A stretch of 61,741 nucleotides of DNA, filler included, from Sphacelaria rigidula (lineage: Eukaryota), in assembly GCA_964200075.2 (NCBI GenBank). It is 9 parts of 9 records of this genome, joined end to end, with 100 filler letters (N's around TTAATTAATTAA, not from the genome) between each part and the next. Parts side by side here need not be neighbours in the genome. Positions count along the whole stretch, not along the records: positions 13,745 to 20,516 come from CAXNAA020018158.1; 8 more parts are not named here. One strand, given 5' to 3'. Positions 8,540 to 58,898 of the stretch are shown here, one piece after another; position 1 is the first letter of the stretch, and every line of letters begins with the position of its first letter. The notes beneath the pieces were generated by a model. That model saw only the letters and a list, made by a program, of their open reading frames with translations. It was not told the DNA's origin and did no database searches. Position numbers and translations under genes: made by a program.

Positions 8540-8813
8540 TCTGCAGAAAGGTGGAGGTCTGCTCATAGCACACCGAGAACGTTATAGTGAATGCTCAACA
8601 AAAGGCGTGCTGCAGGGAGGGCTGCTTCAAGATAGCGTCGTTTGGGCTGGCGGGAAGCGGGGAGAGAGAGTTCCGCTCACAGCATGCCGAGGACAGAATG
8701 GTGAATGTCAGGAACAAGTCGTGGGCCGCAGAGAGGGCTGCTTCATAACCCCGTCGTTTCGGTTGGCGGGAAGCAAGAAGGCGCAGTTTTGCTCATAGCA
8801 CGCCGAGGACGGA
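8540..8813 (+). pseudogene. Degenerate EsV-1-7 repeats upstream of the intact ORF
   Basis: About 2.5 more 114-bp units (CCREGCFKIASFGLAG...). They contain TAG stops at the CSQH position (tgctcaTAGca, twice) and a frameshift near 8720. Confidence 0.8.
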
Positions 8814-10391
8814 ATGGTGAATGTCAAGAACAAGACGTGCTGCAGAGAGGGCTGTTTGAAGCTAGCATCCCGGGGCTTTGCGGGAATCAAGAAGGCGGAG
8901 TTCTGCTCACAGCACGTCGAGGACGGAATGGTTGATGTTAGGGACAAGACGTGCTGCGGAGAGGGCTGCTTCAAGCGGGCGTCGTTTGGGTTGGCGGGAA
9001 GCAGGAAGGCGGAGTTCTGCGCACAGCACGCCGAGGACGGGATGATGAATGTCGTCAACAAAATGTGCTGCAGGGAGGGCTGCTTGAAGATACCGTCTTT
9101 TGGGTTGGCGGGAAGCAGGAAGGCGAAGTTCTGCTCACAGCACGCCGAAAACGGAATGGTGAGTGTCAAGGGCAATGCGTGCTGCAGAGAGGGCTGCTTC
9201 AAGATTGCGTCGTTTGGGCTGGCGGTCAACAAGAAGGCGAAGTTCTGCTCGCAGCACGTCGACGACGAAATGGTTGATGTCAAGAACGAGACGTGCTGCA
9301 GAGAAGGTTGCTCCAAGCGGCCGTCGTTTGGTCTGGCAGGAAGCAAGAGGACGGAGTTCTGCCCACAGCACGCCGAGGACGGAATGGTGAATGTCAAGAA
9401 CAAGACGTGCTGCAGAGAGGGCTGCCTCAAGCTACCGTCGTTTGAGTTTGCGGGAAGCAAGAAGGCAGAATTCTGCTCACATCACGCCGGAGACAGGATG
9501 GTGAATGTCGTCAACAAAACGTGCTGCAGGGAGGGCTACTTGAAGAGAGCGACGTGTGGGTTGGCGGGAAGCAGGAAAGTGGAATTCTGCTCACAACATG
9601 CCGGAGAGGGCATGGTTAATGTCGAGAAGAAGACGTGCCGCACAGAGGGCTGCTCTAGCATGGCATCGTTTGGGTTGGCGGGAAGCAAGAAGACGGAGTT
9701 CTGCCCACAGCACGCCGAGGGCGGGATGGTGAATGTCGTCAACAAGACGTGCTGCAGAGAGGGCTGCTTGAAGAGAGCGACGTGGGGGTTGGCGGGAAGC
9801 AAGAAGGCGGGGTTCTGCTCACAGCACGCCGAGGACGGGATGATGAATACCGTCAACAAGACGTGCTACAGAGAGGGCTGCTTGAAGAGAGCGTCGTTTG
9901 GGTTGGCGGGAAGCAGGAAGGCGGAATTCTGCTCAGAGCATGCCGGAGAGGGCATGGTTAATGTCACGAAGAAGACGTGCTGCAGAGAGGGCTGCTTGAA
10001 GAGAGCCTCCTGGGGGTTGGCGGGAAGCAAGAAGGCGGAGTTCTGCCCACAGCACGCCCACAGCGAGATGGTGAGCGTCCGCTCCAGGAAAAATGTCCGA
10101 TCAGCAGCTTGCCGTTTTGAACAACCGGCGATACGCACGAAAAAGGTGAAGCTAGAGATAGCTGTGCAAAAGTCAAATGACAGTGGGGGATATCCGAGAC
10201 GGTCACGCATTCACGGAATGCGGCAATCCAAGCAGGGTGAGGCTCCGAAGAGTAACACCACAAAGGGAGCTGGGCTCACTTCTACGACTGGTGAACTATC
10301 TACGGAGCAAGTTGCCCGTAGCATGACCACCGCAGGCGTTCTGATGTGCGAGGGCGTGACGAACGTGAAGTCAGAGATGAGCGTTCCATAG
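8814..10391 (+). CDS. EsV-1-7 domain (cysteine-rich repeat) protein, 525 aa, intronless
   Basis: 11 tandem 38-aa repeats, consensus MVNVxxKTCCREGCxKxxSFGLAGSxKAEFCSQHAEDG (C-x4-C...C-x2-H), then a basic low-complexity tail ending VKSEM. This matches the EsV-1-7 family of phaeoviruses and brown algae. The true start may lie upstream in the disrupted repeats. Confidence 0.88.
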   Translation: MVNVKNKTCCREGCLKLASRGFAGIKKAEFCSQHVEDGMVDVRDKTCCGEGCFKRASFGLAGSRKAEFCAQHAEDGMMNVVNKMCCREGCLKIPSFGLAGSRKAKFCSQHAENGMVSVKGNACCREGCFKIASFGLAVNKKAKFCSQHVDDEMVDVKNETCCREGCSKRPSFGLAGSKRTEFCPQHAEDGMVNVKNKTCCREGCLKLPSFEFAGSKKAEFCSHHAGDRMVNVVNKTCCREGYLKRATCGLAGSRKVEFCSQHAGEGMVNVEKKTCRTEGCSSMASFGLAGSKKTEFCPQHAEGGMVNVVNKTCCREGCLKRATWGLAGSKKAGFCSQHAEDGMMNTVNKTCYREGCLKRASFGLAGSRKAEFCSEHAGEGMVNVTKKTCCREGCLKRASWGLAGSKKAEFCPQHAHSEMVSVRSRKNVRSAACRFEQPAIRTKKVKLEIAVQKSNDSGGYPRRSRIHGMRQSKQGEAPKSNTTKGAGLTSTTGELSTEQVARSMTTAGVLMCEGVTNVKSEMSVP

Positions 10392-11213: not shown

Positions 11214-11645
11214 CTTACAAATTGGGGATGGATCTTTAATCGGGGATGAATAACCCGGAGAATAAAAATCTTCATGACTACACCAAATCTTCGAAATATG
11301 ATTCCATTCCTACACCTACTGCTAGCTATTGACAACTGCTACACTCCATATAGATTGGGATTTCGATCACCGAAATGTTGGGGCCCTAGGTGAAAAACCA
11401 ATTCTGGGGAATTTCAGGTGTCCGAACGGAGGCCAAAATTGGTTCCGAAATTGTTTTTCCACATGGGGCCCAACATTTCGGTGATCGAAATCCAAATTTC
11501 TATGGCGTGCAGCCGTTGTCAATAGCTATCAGTAGGTGTAGAAATGGAATCATATTTCGAAGATTTGGTGTGGATACGAAGTTTTTCATCCTCCGGGTTC
11601 CTCGCTCTCAATGAAAAATCCATCCCCAATTTGTATGATCCCGTG
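11214..11645. mobile_element. Fold-back / MITE-like palindromic element, copy A (left end truncated)
   Basis: The arm at about 11214-11404 is the imperfect reverse complement of about 11449-11637. The right terminus GATCCCGTG is shared with copy B. Confidence 0.8.
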
Positions 11646-12712: not shown

Positions 12713-13146
12713 AACACGGGATCTTACAAATTGGGGATGGATCTTTTATTGGGGATGAGAAAGCAGGAGGATCAAAATCTTCGCATCCACACCAAATGTT
12801 GGAAATATGGTTCCATTTCTTCAACTTCTGATAGCAATTGACAACTGCTACACGCAATAGAAATATGGATTTCGATTACCGAAATGTTGGGGTTCTAGGT
12901 GAAAATCCAATTTCGGAACCATTTTGGCCTTTTTCGAAATTTCCGAAATTGGATTTTCACCTAGAACCCCAACATTTCGGTGATCGGAATCCAAATTTCT
13001 ATTGCGTGTAGCAGTTGTCAATTGCTATCAGAAGTTGAAGAAATGGAACCATATTTCCAACATTTGGTGTGGATGCGAAGATTTTAATCCTCCTGCTTTC
13101 TCATCCCCAATAAAAGATCAATCCCCAATTTGTAAGATCCCGTGTT
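12713..13146. mobile_element. Fold-back / MITE-like palindromic element, copy B
   Basis: Arms 12713-12918 and 12941-13146 (AACACGGGATCTTACAAATTGGGG...CCCCAATTTGTAAGATCCCGTGTT) are near-perfect inverted repeats with a 22-bp loop. The ORF track shows the same peptide (MRVAVVNCYQKLKKW...) on both strands. No clear TSD. Confidence 0.88.
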
Positions 13147-13744: not shown

Positions 13745-14154
13745 GTTGGAGATTGGAGGTGAGACGTGTGCTCTTCTGAGCTACTCTGTCTGTGCTTGTC
13801 GCACAGCTGACCACGCCCCCCCCCCCCCCCCCCCCCCCACGACCATAAATAAAAAAAACAGAAATATATATGCTTGCACTTCCGCGTTATCATCACCCTC
13901 CCCTGTCAACAAGTCCGGGTACTCTTCAGTCATCTCCAACTCGATCTGAGCCGCTTACTCGTCATTCTCCAGCATTACTTTGTCCTCGACGGCGTCCTTG
14001 CCATACCCGATCGGAGTCTTCAGGGAAAGAACGCTTCCCGGAAGCACAGTGTAATTTTACATCCACTTGTCCATCTCCTTGATGGCATGCTTGACCAGGT
14101 TGCCACAATGGGCCGCTGTCCAACCGCCCTCCTGCCCTTCTATTCGGGGTCCCC

Positions 14155-15042
14155 TTACCTCCCGTTTCGAATCTGCTCCCATATCCCGTCTATTTTCCTC
14201 TTCGTATCAAACCGGAAGCTCACGTACTGCTTGCCGTGCTGCCAGAAAAACTCGATCGGCTGAAAGCTGGGCACGTACGGTGGAGTCCACATTAACTCTC
14301 GTCCTTGCCAGTACATGCACCGCTCCACTTTTTCCGGGAGCTTTTCGGCGTGATGAACCTCAAAGTACGCCCGCATAGCCAACGCAATCTCCTCCTTACT
14401 CACGCTGTTGCCGACTTTAGAGTTGGCTTGCGGGGAAACATCGCCGGGCTCTGGTACATACATGTTGCGCGTCGTGGTCACCATAACGCCGCTGCTGTTC
14501 TTGGCGCACTCCGCCTTGATCCATGAAACCCTGTAATTCTGCAACAGCTCCGTGTTGTATTTTTTGCAGTTGGACTCGGGTACCCTCACCTCCTCGTCAA
14601 ATTCATGCTGATACGATGCGTTGTCGAGGACCAGAATCATCTTGTCGCCGAACACCTCCCTGAAAACCGGCGTGAGGCGCTTCTCAAGCCAATCCATAAA
14701 CATTTTGTGCGTCATAGCGTCGTGACGATCACCTTTCCCGTTTTTTGCCTGCTATAGGCCCTCATCCGTTCTCCCCATCTCTCCGGCCCCCACTCTCCCC
14801 GTGCAATTCGTCTTCGGCGTGAAAGGGCCCTCGGGAGTTTGAAAATGATCATTCCCGCGGGTCACCAACGGGCCGTGCTTGGTGGTGGCATGGACCATAA
14901 TCATACTGTGACCCTTTCCGGATGTCCTCCTCATTCCATCCTGCACGACGCCTTCTCCGTCTGTGAAAAAGTACGAGTAAGCCGAGTCGTGCAGCTGACG
15001 GACAAAGCTTTCGTCCATGTGAAACAAGGATTGCTTGCTCAT
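14155..15042 (-). pseudogene. DDE transposase catalytic region (Sailor-like), disrupted
   Basis: ORF 14752-15042 holds the first Asp (MDESF). ORF 14155-14715 holds LDNASY...PIE. A stop or frameshift separates them. Confidence 0.85.
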
Positions 15043-15819
15043 CGTCCTGCGCGATCGCCCTCGCTACCTCCGCCGGGAAGCAACGACTACGTGCTTCCCT
15101 GGTCTCATTCATGGGAAGGACTTGATCCTTCCTCGCCGACGCCTGTACCCAAGCCTGTGCAGGAGGGCCCTCACCGCGCGGTTTCATATTTGTCCGTCAT
15201 CCGTATCCTCTATCCACTCTCCAACTGTGCGTCTGAGACTCGATTAGCGGGCGGGGAAATGGAACTGTGATGTCTTGGATGATGGCCAAAATAAGCGTGC
15301 ATTGCAAGTAGTCTTGGGCTAACAAGAACGCTTCCACGTTCACGTGGTACTGGCATTGTAAGCCCAAGACTACTTGCAATGCACGCTTATTTTGGCCATC
15401 ATCCAAAGACATCACAGTTCCATTTCCCCGCCCGCTAATCGAGTCTTCAGACGCACAGTTGGAGAGTGGATAGAGGATACGGATGACGGACAAATATGAA
15501 ACCGCGCGGTGAGGGCCCTCCTGCACAGGCTCGGGTACAGGCGTCGGCGAGGAAGGATCAAATCCCCCCCATGAATGAGACCAGGGAAGCACGTAGTCGT
15601 TGCTTCCCGGCGGAGGTAGCGAGGGCGATCGCGCAGGAAGATGAGCAAGCAATCCTTGTTTCACATGGACGAAAGCTTTGTCCGTCAGCTGCACGACTCG
15701 GCTTACTCGTACTTTTTCACAGACGGAGAAGGCGTCGTGCAGGATGGAATGAGGCGGACATCCGGAAAGGGTCACAGTACGATTATGGTCCATGCCATCA
15801 CCAAGCACGGCCCATTGGT
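14864..15819. repeat. Long inverted duplication of transposase sequence
   Basis: Arms 14864-15320 and 15361-15819 with a 40-bp loop. About 11 differences counted by eye. The ORF track shows mirrored ORFs (MSKQSLFHMDESF on both strands). Confidence 0.95.
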
Positions 15820-18453
15820 ATGCACGCTGAATATGTAACCGCACTGTTTCTCGTCGAGCACCGCCCGCTCATCCCCGACACCCCGCATGACACCTCGCCA
15901 GTGCCCTCATGTTGAGCAGCAGCTTTTTCTTCTCAAACCAATGTGTCCGAACCTGAAATCCGAGCAAAAACGGTGCAACAAAGAGATTCAGTCATGCTCT
16001 AGTCAAGGATGCGCGCGCAAACACGGCGGTCATGTGCAGGGTAGACTGCGGCATCGAAAGTGTATACCACCTTGGACATAAGACTACATTGTCGAAAAGT
16101 GTACTGCTCACCGTGTCGAATCTTACCTCTAGTGCAGCAGATAATAGATTCCGCATTGTACGCAGTACACTTTTCAACAATTTAATATTGTGTCCAGGGT
16201 GTGGTATCTATCGTTCCATAACATATAAAATCGCCTACAGACACCAGCGCAGTACAACACAGTAACCGAAGTGCAGTACACCGATCAGTGTAAGCAGGAG
16301 AGTACACACAGTACCGGCCGTACGGTGCAGCACGGTACTGTATACACGGTATAATTGAGTACAGCACAAGCAGCGCAGTGCAGCACAACAGTAAAGTACA
16401 TGGAAAAATTGAGTGTATAGAGAGCACAGTACACGATGTAATTGAGCATGCAGGACAGAAAATATTTATAGAGTAAGTACGCTGTGTGGTCAATTCAAAC
16501 GATACAGAAAAACAGTATCGTACAACATGAGCTTAACCTGCACACCTTCTGCTGGCTTACGCGTAACGTGGATACAGTCTTGCACACAGCCGCATTGTGA
16601 GGATCGCCTTCCTGCACGACGTTGGAGTACAGCACGAGAATGGCCCGAGATTGCGACTCGTGCAAAAGCACACCCTTCCTTAGCTTCAGATCTTCACGGG
16701 CTTCTGCAGCTGCAGCCTCGTCGCGATCATGATCAAGACCTCTGCGGTCCCCCGCTTCCGCAGCGGAATTCGCCGCGGCCCTCTCTGCAGCATGCCTCGC
16801 CTCTGCTCTCTCTACAGCCTTGGCTCTCGCTGTGATATCCACCTTCTCCATAGCAATGGCTGCATTTGCCTCAGCAAACGCTGCCTTTTGTGCAGCTTTC
16901 GCCTCAGCAAAGGCTGCCTCTTGCGCGGCAAGGTCTGCCTTCTCCTGACGAGGGCTGCCTCCTGTGAAACAGCGGCGGCCTGCTGTGCGGCTGCGGCTGC
17001 TTCGTCTGCAGCAACGGCTTCTTCACGTCCTTCTATTCCCTTCCCCTTTCATGCACACGCGTGGCTTGTCTCTTCTCACCACGTTAGACGCAGTGCCAGG
17101 ATGGGCGCTGCCGTTCTCCCACCTCTCCTGCGGGTCATCGCTGAGGGGTACGCTGTGATCTGTAGACCCTCACCTCAGCCGAAACATATCTCGAGCGCAT
17201 TTTCAAATTTTGAAAAACGGTTTCAGGAGCTTCCTGGGTCATATTCCAAGGTTTTCATCCACATGTCGTTTGCATGTTTCTTCAGGGGTGTGAGGATGGC
17301 ACTCCTCCCCCAAACGAAAAAAAGTGTTGTCATGATCAACCTGACCTCTTCCATACTCTACGATATGCCTGGGGACGAAACCACCAACGTTTGAAAGCCG
17401 CAGTACAGTTTCCGGCTTTTTCACGGTGTGCGCAACGCATATCACCAACCATGCCCTCCCGTTGGTTTTGTCTGAAAACTGCACAAAAAAATATTGTGTG
17501 CACGGGTAAACTTGAAATTATCATTCGCACATTTTTTTTCGAATTCTCGTCTTCGCGCGTTTGTTACTCCTACAGTAGTGGGCGGATTAACTATTCAGGG
17601 ATGCTTTGGGATTTTCCTCGCGTGCTATTCTTCGATATAACTTGAAATTGCTAGCGTCGATAGATTTGGTACAATCAACAGATCATTCTCGAAACACATG
17701 GCCCAAGTCAGCGTCAGTCGGTGTAATCGGGCGAGAAGAGTAAATACCCCGTTTATCAGGAGGGTGTTATTGATCGTGAAACACAGTTTTCCGGCTCTAG
17801 TGCAATGGGTAGGTTGAATTAGAAAAAAAAAAAGTACATTCCTTCACAAATATGATCGGGACATGCTCGATCGACCGAAAATACCGAAGAGTGAGAATCT
17901 GGGCTGACACGTGGCAGGACCCCCGATGACAGGTCAGCCTGTAAGTCACTCAATAGTGAGGGCAGATGTTTTTTTTCCTTGAAATGTGGAGGGGATAAAA
18001 ATATATTCAGATCTCCAATGTAATAAGCGGTGGCAAGCGGAAAGAGCCAAAGAAAATCGCCAATTACGAAAAAATCACAAAATGCCACAAAATGAATAGT
18101 TAGACCGCCCACTCCTGACTGTACTATCAATGTTCCCCCGTGAATATCCCGCAATGTATATTTTTCCGTGGGATACGGGATACAATTTGATACCGGCATA
18201 TCTCGCAATTTCGGGCGGAACAACTACAATATACCCCAGACATATCGAGGTGTAGATATAGATTTGGGATACGATACCCATTACTAGTGTAACAACAGTA
18301 CACACTTTCCTTCAGCGATTGTTTCAGTTTTCCTTCGTCTCCGGTACGTCAATCATGGGACCGCGGCTGAACCCCTGGGGTATCCGTTAAAGTGCGAAAA
18401 CAAATCAATCATGAAACGTCAGCCAGAAGCCTCGATGCAGGCGGCATATGTAC

Positions 18454-18567
18454 CTCAATGATGGCCTTGTACCCTTTCAGCGGGGACCCGGCCGCGCGGA
18501 TACACTCGGACAGGTCGCTCTGGTCCCACACCTGCTTCAGGTCGTCGATATTCTGCGGCGGGACAAT
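18454..18567 (-). pseudogene. Orphan exon-like segment of an unidentified gene
   Basis: 114 bp, phase 0, GC3-rich, encoding IVPPQNIDDLKQVWDQSDLSECIRAAGSPLKGYKAIIE. The donor GAG|GTAC is good. A polypyrimidine tract is present but the acceptor reads GG instead of AG. Confidence 0.4.
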
Positions 18568-18773
18568 CCGAGAAAACATTGACAGAAAAACAAAATCATT
18601 TCGAGAAGAAATGTTATGGTCCACCATGAGCTTGCGACGAGTCGGTCTGTGCGGGCAAGGTCGTCAACTTTTCCCACAACCCTCAATGAGGTACACAACA
18701 GCACCCGAGAATTACTACGCGATTCGACATGCCGACCATCCTCCTAAGGTGAAGCTTACTAGGAGACCGCGAC

Positions 18774-18981
18774 AGTAGGACATCTGTTGAATCGGCAACA
18801 ATTTCACTTGAATAAAGTATGCGTGATCCAGATCCAGATGAATTACCCTCGCGGACCAAGGGTCAACTCTTTGGCCGGAAGAATGGAGTTGACCCTTGGA
18901 CCGCGTTGCGGTTAGTCCATCTGGATCGCGCATACTTTTTCAAGTGAAATTGATGCCGATTCAGCAGGTGATCGACCTACT
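18774..18981. repeat. About 200-bp imperfect palindrome (small MITE or hairpin RNA precursor)
   Basis: CATCTGTTGAATCGGCAACAATTTCACTTGAA...CCAAGGGTCAACTC pairs with GAGTTGACCCTTGG...TTCAAGTGAAATTGATGCCGATTCAGCAGGTG; the loop is about 16 nt. Confidence 0.85.
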
Positions 18982-20452
18982 CTTGAGGTCAGAACGTTTA
19001 ATTTGATCGCTCGGAAGCTACTTCATATGATCGTTGTAGTGTTGCTCCCAACACAACGTCCCACCTAAAAGAGCGACGGAGGTACACCCATGCCTGCAGA
19101 AGGTGCATGTCATGAGTAAAACCGGAGGGAAGACGCTCGGGTGAGGTTGGAATATCTATATATATAATAGTACATCTGAACGGCTTTTTAAGATTTTGAG
19201 CCAATGGTCGAACAGAGGCAGGTGCATAACGGCTTTGCGCGAAAAAAAAACGGAATGGCCACCCTGTATTCAAGACTGCCCGCACTTGGCCCGCATCACT
19301 TTAACCATTGCACTCTTGCACGGAAACTTTGCTTGTGCATTCTTCAACCGTGGGCGAAGGCATCACCATGAAACTTGGTGCACTAGTTGGAGACAACACA
19401 GGCATTATGTGCACCAAGTTTCAGCTACTTTCAGCCAGCAAGCAAATGAAACTAAGCGAATACCGATATACCCCCGATAGGCCCTCAAAATGGCTATCCC
19501 GCAGCCCAGAATGCGTGTACCGTGAGCGAATGCGTATGTGGACGTGGTGGTGCCCTCACTTCCATATCATGATCTTCTGGGAGGGTACAGTGCTTGCAAA
19601 CGAACATAGATCAGTACTGGCACACCCTTTGGATAATGACAATATGTAGAAAGGTCATTCCGGTATCGACTGTAGAGATGCTCAGGGGAGGAGGCACGGT
19701 CATGCGCGCGCTGTCGTCACTGCTATGCGCTGAAAGTTTGGTTAACATACCATGTGGACCACAATCAACAAGCCCATGCGTCTAGATCTTGGGTTGGGCG
19801 TTGCAGCAGTACGCGAGGTGATGAAAAGAGCTCAAATTCTGTTCCGAAACAATTGTTTTTGTTCTTTTCGTGCAAGACTAAAAAGTGCCAATATGTGCCC
19901 GTCAAGTTCGAGACGCGGCTGCTGCAAGGAAAGAAATGTACAGAAGAGCGCGGGTCAAGTGAGACCAATTTCTCGTGATTGCTCGTTGCTTCGCTTCATC
20001 AGATGTACTCTCGACTGGAAGAATGTCTCCCTACACGGGGATCGCCCTCTCCACAAGCTCGTGAGTTTCGGTTACGGCAGTTCAGGTGGAGCGACATCAT
20101 GAGTACGCTGGCGGCGGACCACACAGGGCACACCACCCACCGATTGAAGTCGGCTAGCGTCAGGGGATCTGATCATGTACAGCTGACAGCACAGCTCGCA
20201 CGTTTACGTGGGAACTGCGAGCGTTCTGGTCAGCGCGCCAACGCCCCCAGCGGCAGACCTCCTTTCGGAACAATATCACGGGCTTCGCTTCGATTGACGG
20301 TGACCCCGACGCCATTGCTGACCGACCCCTGTCTGTTTGCGCGCAACATCAGTGGTAATGATAGCATGCATACCGTCAACTATGCTGCCGTCAACCTCCG
20401 GAGTGAGGTATTTTCGTTTCAGTCGCAGCCTTTGTCTTCCGTATATCTGGTC

Positions 20453-20516
20453 GCACCGGTGGCTCAGTTGGTAACCTCGAAACCCTCTGACGGTTGGGTC
20501 GTGGGTTCAATTCTCG
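20453..20516 (+). repeat. tRNA-derived SINE head (truncated by contig end)
   Basis: A box TGGCTCAGTTGG and B box GGTTCAATTCT. A near-identical copy lies on the minus strand at 28291-28352. The anticodon arm is non-canonical. Confidence 0.7.
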
Positions 20517-57353: not shown

Positions 57354-58898
57354 TAGGGTTGCTCATCAATCTATTCATCAGGGTTGGTTTTGATGAAAAA
57401 TATTTGAGTTTGTATCAACATCACATCAGCGCGTCGCTGATTACTTGATTATTATCAACCAATCAACTTGAATCAACCAGGTCAAAATAACTTGATTAAT
57501 CGTGATAGTTGATTTTTTCCAAGAAGAAAAGAGGCGTTTGCGTCGTGTAACGTCGTTTGTTGCCTCCAGCGCAACCATTCATCGACGGACATGTCTACTA
57601 ATCGACTCTACTCCTGAAAAGACGCGAGCAACGACGAACACACAGCAGCAAACAGCAGCAATACTCGGGCGGTTTTGGCTCTTCGTTACCACAAGTCCGC
57701 CTACACAGAACACGCGTTCGGATGCCGCAGATGAAGCTTGAACCGCAAGGTACCTGTGGGCTAGGATGGCGACGTGGGGATACACCCGCTGTGCCTTCGC
57801 CCACCACCCCAGAGCACCGCCCTCCTGGGCCACGTCTCGTGTGTGTAACGGTGTGACAGTAATGGTGCCTCTACAAAGATAAGATTGTTTCCGAGGGAGA
57901 CGTGGCCCAGGAGGGCGGTGCTCTGGGGTGGTGGGCGAAGGCACAGCGGGTGTATCCCCACGTCGCCATCCTAGCCCGCAAGTACCTTGCGGTTCAAGCT
58001 TCATCTGCGGCATCCGAACGCGTGTTCTGTGTAGGCGGACTTGTGGTGACGAAGAGCCAAAACCGCCTGAGTATTGCTGCTGTTTGCTGCTGTGTGTTCC
58101 TACACGAAAGCATGAAACATGACATCTGATTGACATCAGCGCTATCCTACCTGGTAAAGATTGCTGCTGGGCTTGTCTGGAATATGGACTACTGCTATTC
58201 ACATTTATACCTGTGGTGTGCTGTAGTTGGGGAGGGTGTCTCCAAGTACGGCTTTCAGGAAGTGGGGAAGAAAAGGAAACTTCGCGTGCATGCCGTATGT
58301 TCAAAGGCTGTTGTATCACAACATCGCACACCTTGCACAGCATGACGTGTTTTGCAGCGATACTCGCATCGCATCAATCACTTTTCTCGTCAGTCACACC
58401 CACGACGCGACAATATACACAGAGCAATATATAATATGAGCTAGTGAAATGCAACAAGGAGCTTCGTCGATAAGCGAGTGCAATTTGGGTACAGTACTAT
58501 CATCTCTTTTTTCAGACAGGTTTGAGGCGAACATGTTTCATATTTGAGAGTGCTTCGAAGTTTAACACAGCAATAGTGCAAGAAGATGGGGTGTTTGAGT
58601 ATCGATGCAGCAGGTTCAGCTAAGATATTGAACACAGCGGACTGCTGTGCTGCTGCTGTGGTCTTGCGTATGCGTACTCGTGTGCTCTACATTGTTCCAC
58701 CGACAAAATTCAGCCGATTTTTGGCTTGTGTGCTGCTTGAATGCTACCAAAATAATCAACTGTCATGATCAGTTGATTAAGAGACGTGGTGTTGATTAGT
58801 TGATTTGTATTAACTAATCATGATGATATCAAGCCGATTTGGAAGAAAATATCAAATATCAAATGAATCCCCCCCCCCAAAGTTGATGAGCAACCCTA
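57354..58898 (+). mobile_element. Non-autonomous hAT (Ac-like) transposon
   Basis: Perfect 16-bp TIRs TAGGGTTGCTCATCAA (57354-57369) and TTGATGAGCAACCCTA (58883-58898). The 8-bp flanks CACCACGA and CCCCACGT match at 6/8, consistent with a TSD. Subterminal ATCAA/TTGAT repeats are present. The internal hAT dimerisation-domain fragment reads WWAKAQRVYPHVAILARKYLAVQASSAASERVF...NRLS. Confidence 0.92.
57636..58099. repeat. Inverted duplication of the hAT dimerisation-domain sequence
   Basis: Arms 57636-57838 and 57897-58099 (203 bp each) with a 58-bp loop; 4 mismatches by eye. Confidence 0.95.

Follow-up and report, generated by a model that had tools for sequence, protein, structure and literature searches.

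A fold-back that lies in a dead copy of an IS630-Tc1-mariner (ITm) transposon of the brown alga Sphacelaria rigidula is present in the genome and enters RNA. We consider it probable that this structure is a scar of DNA repair which acts as an incidental source of double-stranded RNA. The window, i.e. the whole stretch of 61,741 nt that was analysed, consists of nine contigs of ~6.77 kb each with N runs every 6855–6872 bases; since the contigs are joined by N linkers, sequences flanking a linker are not genomic neighbours. The fold-back is on one of them (G000:C18158, window 13745–20516, hereafter C18158), which belongs to a short-read and fragmentary assembly of 244 Mb in 27,214 contigs.

Global alignment of 14864–15320 with the reverse complement of 15361–15819 gave 459 columns with 11 differences, two of which are 1-bp indels, as the initial annotation had reported. 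The stem continues inwards for 5 bp with one extra mismatch, to 15325/15356 (464 columns, 97.4% identity, 12 arm differences), and therefore the loop is 30 nt long (15326–15355) and not 40 as first proposed. In this region 688 12-mers have a reverse-complement partner versus at most 9 in 200 shuffles, and a single-stem fold is predicted for the minus-strand RNA. The left arm has the sense orientation for the minus-strand transposase. Both arms had been described as transposase coding sequence around the first catalytic Asp; this is correct for 14864–15243 and its mirror, but 15244–15325 and its mirror are of apparent Gypsy origin, and such DNA accounts for 82 bp at the inner end of each arm as well as for the greater part of the loop. 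The RLGYRRRRG-MDESF frame contains three identical stops in both arms, and the odd segment before MDESF is also common to both. Because the two arms carry this filler together with the three stops, the transposase gene was already disrupted before the long stem formed. A tree of 10 rows groups the arms as sisters, with branches of 0.02 and 0.01, and a stem of 0.11 separates them from the 8 other rows. Coordinates are given in Table 1.

Table 1. Features of the fold-back locus, the element that contains it and the putative host gene (window coordinates)
Feature	Position	Strand	Remarks
Transposase gene, 3′ part, broken	13877..15243	-	Homologue residues 195-653; stops, frameshift; DD123E spacing
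Left arm	14864..15325	.	Transposase codons around first catalytic Asp (14864-15243) and putative Gypsy filler (15244-15325)
Captured LTR-retroelement fragment, high-copy	15244..15346	+	From region after integrase core; replaces ~12 bp of transposase gene
Loop, 30 nt	15326..15355	.	Putative Gypsy up to 15346, then short reoriented Gypsy piece
Right arm, inverted left-arm copy	15356..15819	.	Putative Gypsy part 15356-15438, transposase part 15439-15819
9-mer, second copy, probably Gypsy-derived	15379..15387	+	Found in 18/28 Gypsy loci
9-mer, native transposase sequence	15820..15828	+	One-letter variant at same place in relatives
Transposase gene, start of exon 2	15820..15952	-	From RNA-run splice and homologue
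Intron, 593 nt, GT-AG	15953..16545	-	Removed in both probable RNA runs, retained in both DNA runs
Transposase gene, 5′ exon and leader	16546..17570	-	Ala-rich region, homologue residues 28-142
High-copy MITE	17573..18121	.	Ends CAGT...ACTG, flanked by TA on either side; lies within element, right next to its 5′ end
5′ terminal inverted repeat remnant	18124..18140	-	Flanking TA of relatives lost in focal copy
Host SnoaL_3-domain gene, coding exon	18454..18552	-	Element downstream, same orientation, probably in following intron

Four of the nine sequencing runs containing the stretch were compared over 15275–18700, two of DNA (X3 and X4) and two presumed to be of RNA (X6 and X7); support for the junctions consists of short-read contigs. 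X4 comes from another study and has its own alleles, with 7 differing letters in 503 (17196–17698). Its loop is covered by a single contig (15296–15754) comprising the inner 25 left-arm letters, which is below our bridging standard of 31 letters, the loop and the right arm. At 15725, X4 forks: one branch follows the 5′ part as far as 16804, and the other, which has left-arm letters, continues elsewhere. In X3 the right-arm branch is unaltered over 15725–16178, left-arm letters are found at 15755 and 15780 and the loop is covered. Therefore the contig graph is that of an inverted duplication, and the loop and both outer junctions are seen in each of the two DNA runs. The inverted repeat is genomic and common to different haplotypes; that it is no assembly mirror, argued previously from the arm differences, is borne out by its recovery from X4. 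An assembly or library artefact, either a fold-back chimera or two alleles joined, is very improbable: the assembly is fragmentary, C18158 opens with adapter-like sequence and the X4 loop contig is short on its left-arm side, but the arms differ at 12 places, X3 and X4 agree on the loop and outer junctions, arm-specific letters are found in RNA runs from a third study and neither the multi-switch junction nor the junction common to two other copies (both described below) resembles the product of a chimera.

A DDE_3 transposase, now broken, is encoded on the minus strand (PF13358, 31.7 bits for a cut-off of 28.6); the D, D and E catalytic motifs, of the DE(S/T), (L/M)DNA, P(I)E type, were found in it. 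The predicted protein is 54–66% identical to five longer proteins, one of them from Ectocarpus, and 58% identical to the cluster of the annotated Ectocarpus siliculosus transposase CBN74917.1. The D–E spacer is 122–124 residues long in six out of six proteins (P0001–P0006), so that the spacing of this brown-algal group as a whole exceeds the published Sailor range. An identical terminus follows TA in four relatives (the 5′ terminus in three of them, the 3′ terminus in the fourth); all four termini start with CG, and the target-site letters read AATA, CATA, GTTA and ATTA. Sailor (DD82E), the label given in the initial annotation, is defined by DD78–111E, mostly TATA target sites and TIRs starting with GT or CC (PMC8533490). 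Because spacer, target site (TA) and TIR start all fall outside this definition, we do not adopt that label and file the element as ITm, DD122–124E, on the basis of spacing, motifs and termini; the DDE_3-type catalytic domain, short TIR and TA target site are ITm features. It does share with Sailor a long D–E spacer, the three motif types, the DDE_3 match and a stramenopile host, the comparison being with the published definition. The Mariner-Tc1 families of Ectocarpus (Sagan-1, TcMar-1 and TcMar-2; PMC12477816) and CBN74917.1 are similar in having a spliced transposase gene, a TA site and a length of ~4 kb, but the family termini are CAGTG or CCGTA there and CGGGG here. Our termini differ from those in all 11 Mariner-Tc1 rows of the table that describes the Ectocarpus library (PMC12477816, supplement 1). 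Frames of 600 and 710 codons on contigs C5399 and C26008 may represent intact distant ITm members.

In the focal copy the MITE parts the 5′ TIR remnant from the transposase gene. The 3′ end lies off C18158; it is lost at 13745–13838, the start of the contig, where sequence that resembles degraded Illumina adapter read-through adjoins a run of 23 C. No piece of this end was found in C13230:1–2500, a contig that carries later exons of the host gene (see below), and the 3′ TIR was not recovered. The transposase intron contains a 134-bp imperfect palindrome (16068–16201) which is present in three relatives too.

The filler 15244–15346 has 41 genome matches at 84–100%. In retroelement copies its homologue is adjoined by rve and Integrase_H2C2; these integrase domains and the gene order point to the Gypsy type. 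A hairpin MITE was considered as the cause of the structure and rejected, the filler being an internal piece of a retroelement >1.5 kb long. In seven relatives the equivalent of ~15243 is joined to 15820 across a dozen bases, which are replaced in the focal copy. The 9-mer ATGCACGCT is present at 15379 and at 15820, as initially annotated, and was then taken as a hint of template switching. This suggestion is strengthened by the different origins of the two copies, native and Gypsy, and by the finding that the filler contains just 0.18% of 9-mers drawn at random from the contig; a repeat by chance is thus judged very unlikely. The copy at 15820 would be the microhomology that primed capture of the Gypsy piece. 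The loop also contains an 11-nt match, in opposite orientation, to the same Gypsy sequence ~55 bp upstream.

We propose that the locus was formed by two repair steps, the first of which is suggested by the junctions. A break in the transposase gene would have been patched by copying ~130 nt from a Gypsy element: the 5′ half would have primed on Gypsy at the 9-nt microhomology, undergone two template switches and been rejoined, leaving a stem of ~30 bp. This short stem would then have primed fold-back synthesis that copied ~430 bp of adjacent DNA, and rejoining at the 9-mer would have left it present twice. Abortive gap repair of DNA transposons is a related route to fold-back inverted duplications. 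The short microhomology, templated filler, small deletion and short spacer are as described for MMBIR and fold-back inverted duplication (PMC2621351, PMC3907307), except that the mechanism here is read from the junctions alone.

Internal inverted duplications were found in 5 of the 28 family loci (28 kb of transposase-like DNA) and represent four independent events; among loci in which the first-Asp region was detected the proportion is 4/12. All five (the focal copy, C5658, C7746, C2297 and C1236) overlap the first catalytic Asp region. C5658 (3364–4187) and C7746 (2893–3460) have one common fold-back junction and unrelated flanks, which suggests that a hairpin derivative transposed; since one derivative is found at two unrelated sites, structures of this kind were present at a time when the family still moved. 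As the arms of these two copies are 95.5% and 87% alike in spite of the same junction, arm identity had to be rejected as a clock, and arms may become homogenised. For this reason, of the earlier statement that both arms share the lesion and that the duplication therefore postdates it, the sharing stands (same stops, same odd segment) and the dating is weaker than first claimed. C2297 (5789–6425) and C1236 (2612–3371) are inverted duplications in transposase coding DNA with arms 79% and 82% alike, and C19636 contains, also in transposase coding DNA, an inverted junction (~5953) running to the contig end.

As controls, no fold-back was found in 28 Gypsy loci (63.8 kb), whereas one of 20 Harbinger loci, C2694, has an internal fold-back of ~147 bp (785–1064), single in two related loci. 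Twenty contigs chosen by round number, and hence biased to long ones, yielded 12 hairpins in 191 kb, 9 of which recur in other examined loci. With the focal copy left out, three family events in 26 kb stand against none in the 63.8 kb of Gypsy DNA (p ~0.024, a crude value open to search bias). Fold-backs in the family and in Harbinger with none in Gypsy fit breaks made by cut-and-paste elements, and recurrence is consistent with general break repair in such elements. However, the frequency of fold-backs and their location, all over the first-Asp region, are not obviously expected of a purely neutral process, and their existence while the family was still mobile also counts against a mere repair scar; the data leave room for selection for hairpins as the cause of recurrence.

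X6 and X7 join 15950 to 16544 and the DNA runs do not; the GT-AG joint supports the RNA nature of the two runs, and the splice, on the minus strand, preserves the frame of the homologue. The spliced X6 contig is an unchanged match from 17574 to 15794 and thus covers the outer 26 letters of the right arm, where it has the right-arm alleles; this crossing of the outer junction is shorter than the standard of 31, a point that weighs against the transcribed-scar reading. An X7 contig contains 86 letters with left-arm alleles followed by 1084 more, probably the 3′ part of the element. One X6 contig lies within an arm and shows five left-arm letters at a depth of 2.7, compared to 2.3–2.9 in nearby intronic contigs. 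No listed record of the RNA runs spans both arms, and contigs cannot reveal transcript ends. In both runs no contig falls in the two bins that span the loop and inner arm (15275–15504), and there is little in mid-arm; this gap was not counted for or against processing because sequence is lost from contigs and long stems are hard to sequence. Hence, the expectation that the element's own transcript runs through the hairpin is upheld as regards a minus-strand, spliced transcript whose contigs enter both arms, but not as regards a single RNA record covering the two.

The element itself appears to lie in a gene. A 101-letter exon (18454–18554) is inside longer contigs in X6 and X7 and has 72% identity to a Scytosiphon SnoaL_3 protein. 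Protein search placed later host exons on contig C13230, but the next exon was found neither there nor between the 18454 exon and the element, and exact searches of the assembly with the two neighbouring exon ends gave no match. Since the next exon is absent between the 18454 exon and the element, the element would sit in a co-oriented intron of this expressed host gene, a placement made across a contig gap. Ectocarpus miRNA loci are likewise mostly intronic and co-oriented (PMC4513859). The element transcript, and also the host pre-mRNA, would form a 460-bp stem from which Dicer could produce 21-nt RNAs. A transcribed hairpin of 460 bases could therefore feed into small-RNA silencing, and the locus is plausible as a source of siRNAs.

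It is unlikely, though with an appreciable chance, that the locus is a real DNA scar giving no meaningful double-stranded RNA, either because transcripts end at the stem or omit it, or because the stem goes unprocessed. The lack of a listed RNA record covering both arms and the intron-like depth of the sole RNA contig inside an arm would fit such a situation, but the spliced contig enters the right arm and carries its letters, the second RNA contig continues far beyond its left-arm letters and crossing of the intron is obligatory for the host pre-mRNA.

The initial annotation went further and proposed a hairpin-RNA silencer of this transposon family. The locus is Mu-killer-like in shape, and a silencing role is putative. 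A killer-type locus would be one in which hairpin RNA, made from the element promoter or by host read-through, gives siRNAs that silence the family in trans, now or formerly, and which is retained for that reason. Eight relatives with an arm match of at least 160 bp are 76–81% identical over the arm. Perfect 21-mers across 14 family loci amount to 0 out of 360 for the left arm and 0–3 out of 368 for the right arm; at most 92 of 360 match a relative with up to two mismatches and at most 183 with three. The Gypsy part is better matched per base than the family, with 6–22 of its 62 21-mers within one mismatch of each of 11 copies. A simple motif match found no open frame that combines the three catalytic motifs in any of the 14 family loci. 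When the DNA runs were searched at 92% likeness, few other letters were seen in the arm and nearly all were arm alleles, although contigs drop rare variants. The locus of origin would be the best match for the predicted 21-nt RNAs, followed by the Gypsy family; with the family copies, which are already broken, they would pair only imperfectly.

The short-read assembly, which possibly misses young copies, thus yielded no target element that is nearly identical or clearly intact, and it does not support the proposal of a silencer for the family. We regard a working trans-silencer as possible but unsupported, and unlikely. Transcription and splicing in a co-oriented intron of an expressed gene, a stem spanning the conserved catalytic exon, the 21-mers that fit a relative with up to two mismatches, the enrichment of fold-backs over Gypsy and the sharing of the structure by different haplotypes are all in its favour. 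Against it, the filler had disrupted the gene before the long stem arose, relatives are diverged and apparently broken, the stem is without TIR or promoter sequence, spliced RNA of the element is still detectable, a fold-back derivative has itself moved and, in Ectocarpus, small-RNA abundance has no clear link to TE expression (PMC12477816). Because the predicted 21-nt RNAs fit family copies only with mismatches, the transcribed repair scar is probably under little or no selection for silencing at present, even if 175–183 of ~360 21-mers match the closest relative when up to 3 mismatches are allowed and young copies could be lacking from a short-read assembly.

Of the features of known killer loci, partial inverted duplication of a transposase gene and genomic presence (in short-read contigs) were found here; a near-identical active target was not. 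Maize Mu killer (Muk) is also a partial inverted transposase-gene duplication in a derivative element, is transcribed and possibly involves read-through from a flanking gene, but its arms are ~1300 bp, include two TIRA copies and are identical to the active target, and 21–22-nt RNAs and heritable silencing have been demonstrated for it (PMC3440606; bioRxiv 10.1101/2020.01.09.900282). In contrast, the present stem is 460 bp, internal only, partly Gypsy, ~20% different from all relatives found and part of an ITm, not a Mutator, element in a brown alga. Ac killer (Ack1) of maize is another natural inverted-repeat derivative of a cut-and-paste element, described as the result of alternative transposition of element ends and tied to silencing of active Ac (bioRxiv 10.1101/2020.01.07.897926; PMC13635294), whereas here filler and microhomology mark junctions that lie inside the element, and no active element that could serve as target was found. 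The literature searched, mostly titles and abstracts with few subscription papers, contained no description of killer-type fold-backs from brown algae.

Small RNAs of 21 nt from TEs, together with a single AGO, have been described in brown algae (PMC12477816). In Ectocarpus, transposons are enriched for 21-nt RNAs, with a 12-fold difference between two Mariner families (PMC12477816), ~15% of RISC RNAs are TE-derived and few transcripts are altered in ago mutants (PMC12867755). Little cytosine methylation in S. rigidula is an assumption borrowed from Ectocarpus. The control of brown-algal transposons has been called largely unknown, with small-RNA load varying sharply among families of one superfamily (PMC12477816). 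A speculative and quite unlikely reading is that recurrent fold-back of catalytic exons in DNA transposons starts family-specific 21-nt silencing in brown algae, with their single AGO and scant, if any, DNA methylation. The family has four independent fold-backs over one region, of which the focal one would be fed by its own promoter and a host intron; the focal stem would hit a Gypsy family as well, and the reading, if true, could account for the 12-fold gap between sister Mariner families in Ectocarpus. With its 12 arm-specific letters, a hairpin transcribed from a single locus offers a clean test, in which small-RNA reads from either arm, from the loop and from the Gypsy part can be told apart. 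Should the presence of fold-backs predict the families that bear small RNAs, the question of transposon control becomes testable genome-wide; if not, the structure is an ordinary repair scar.

Other repeats were noted in the window. Two copies (11216–11635 and 12713–13146) of a dispersed 430-bp hairpin element of the fold-back MITE type are also present in several other loci. A hairpin at 57636–58099, with 203-bp arms 98% alike and a 58-nt loop, has no match among the loci examined, and 8543–10164 is a tandem array of ~13 copies with a 114-bp period.
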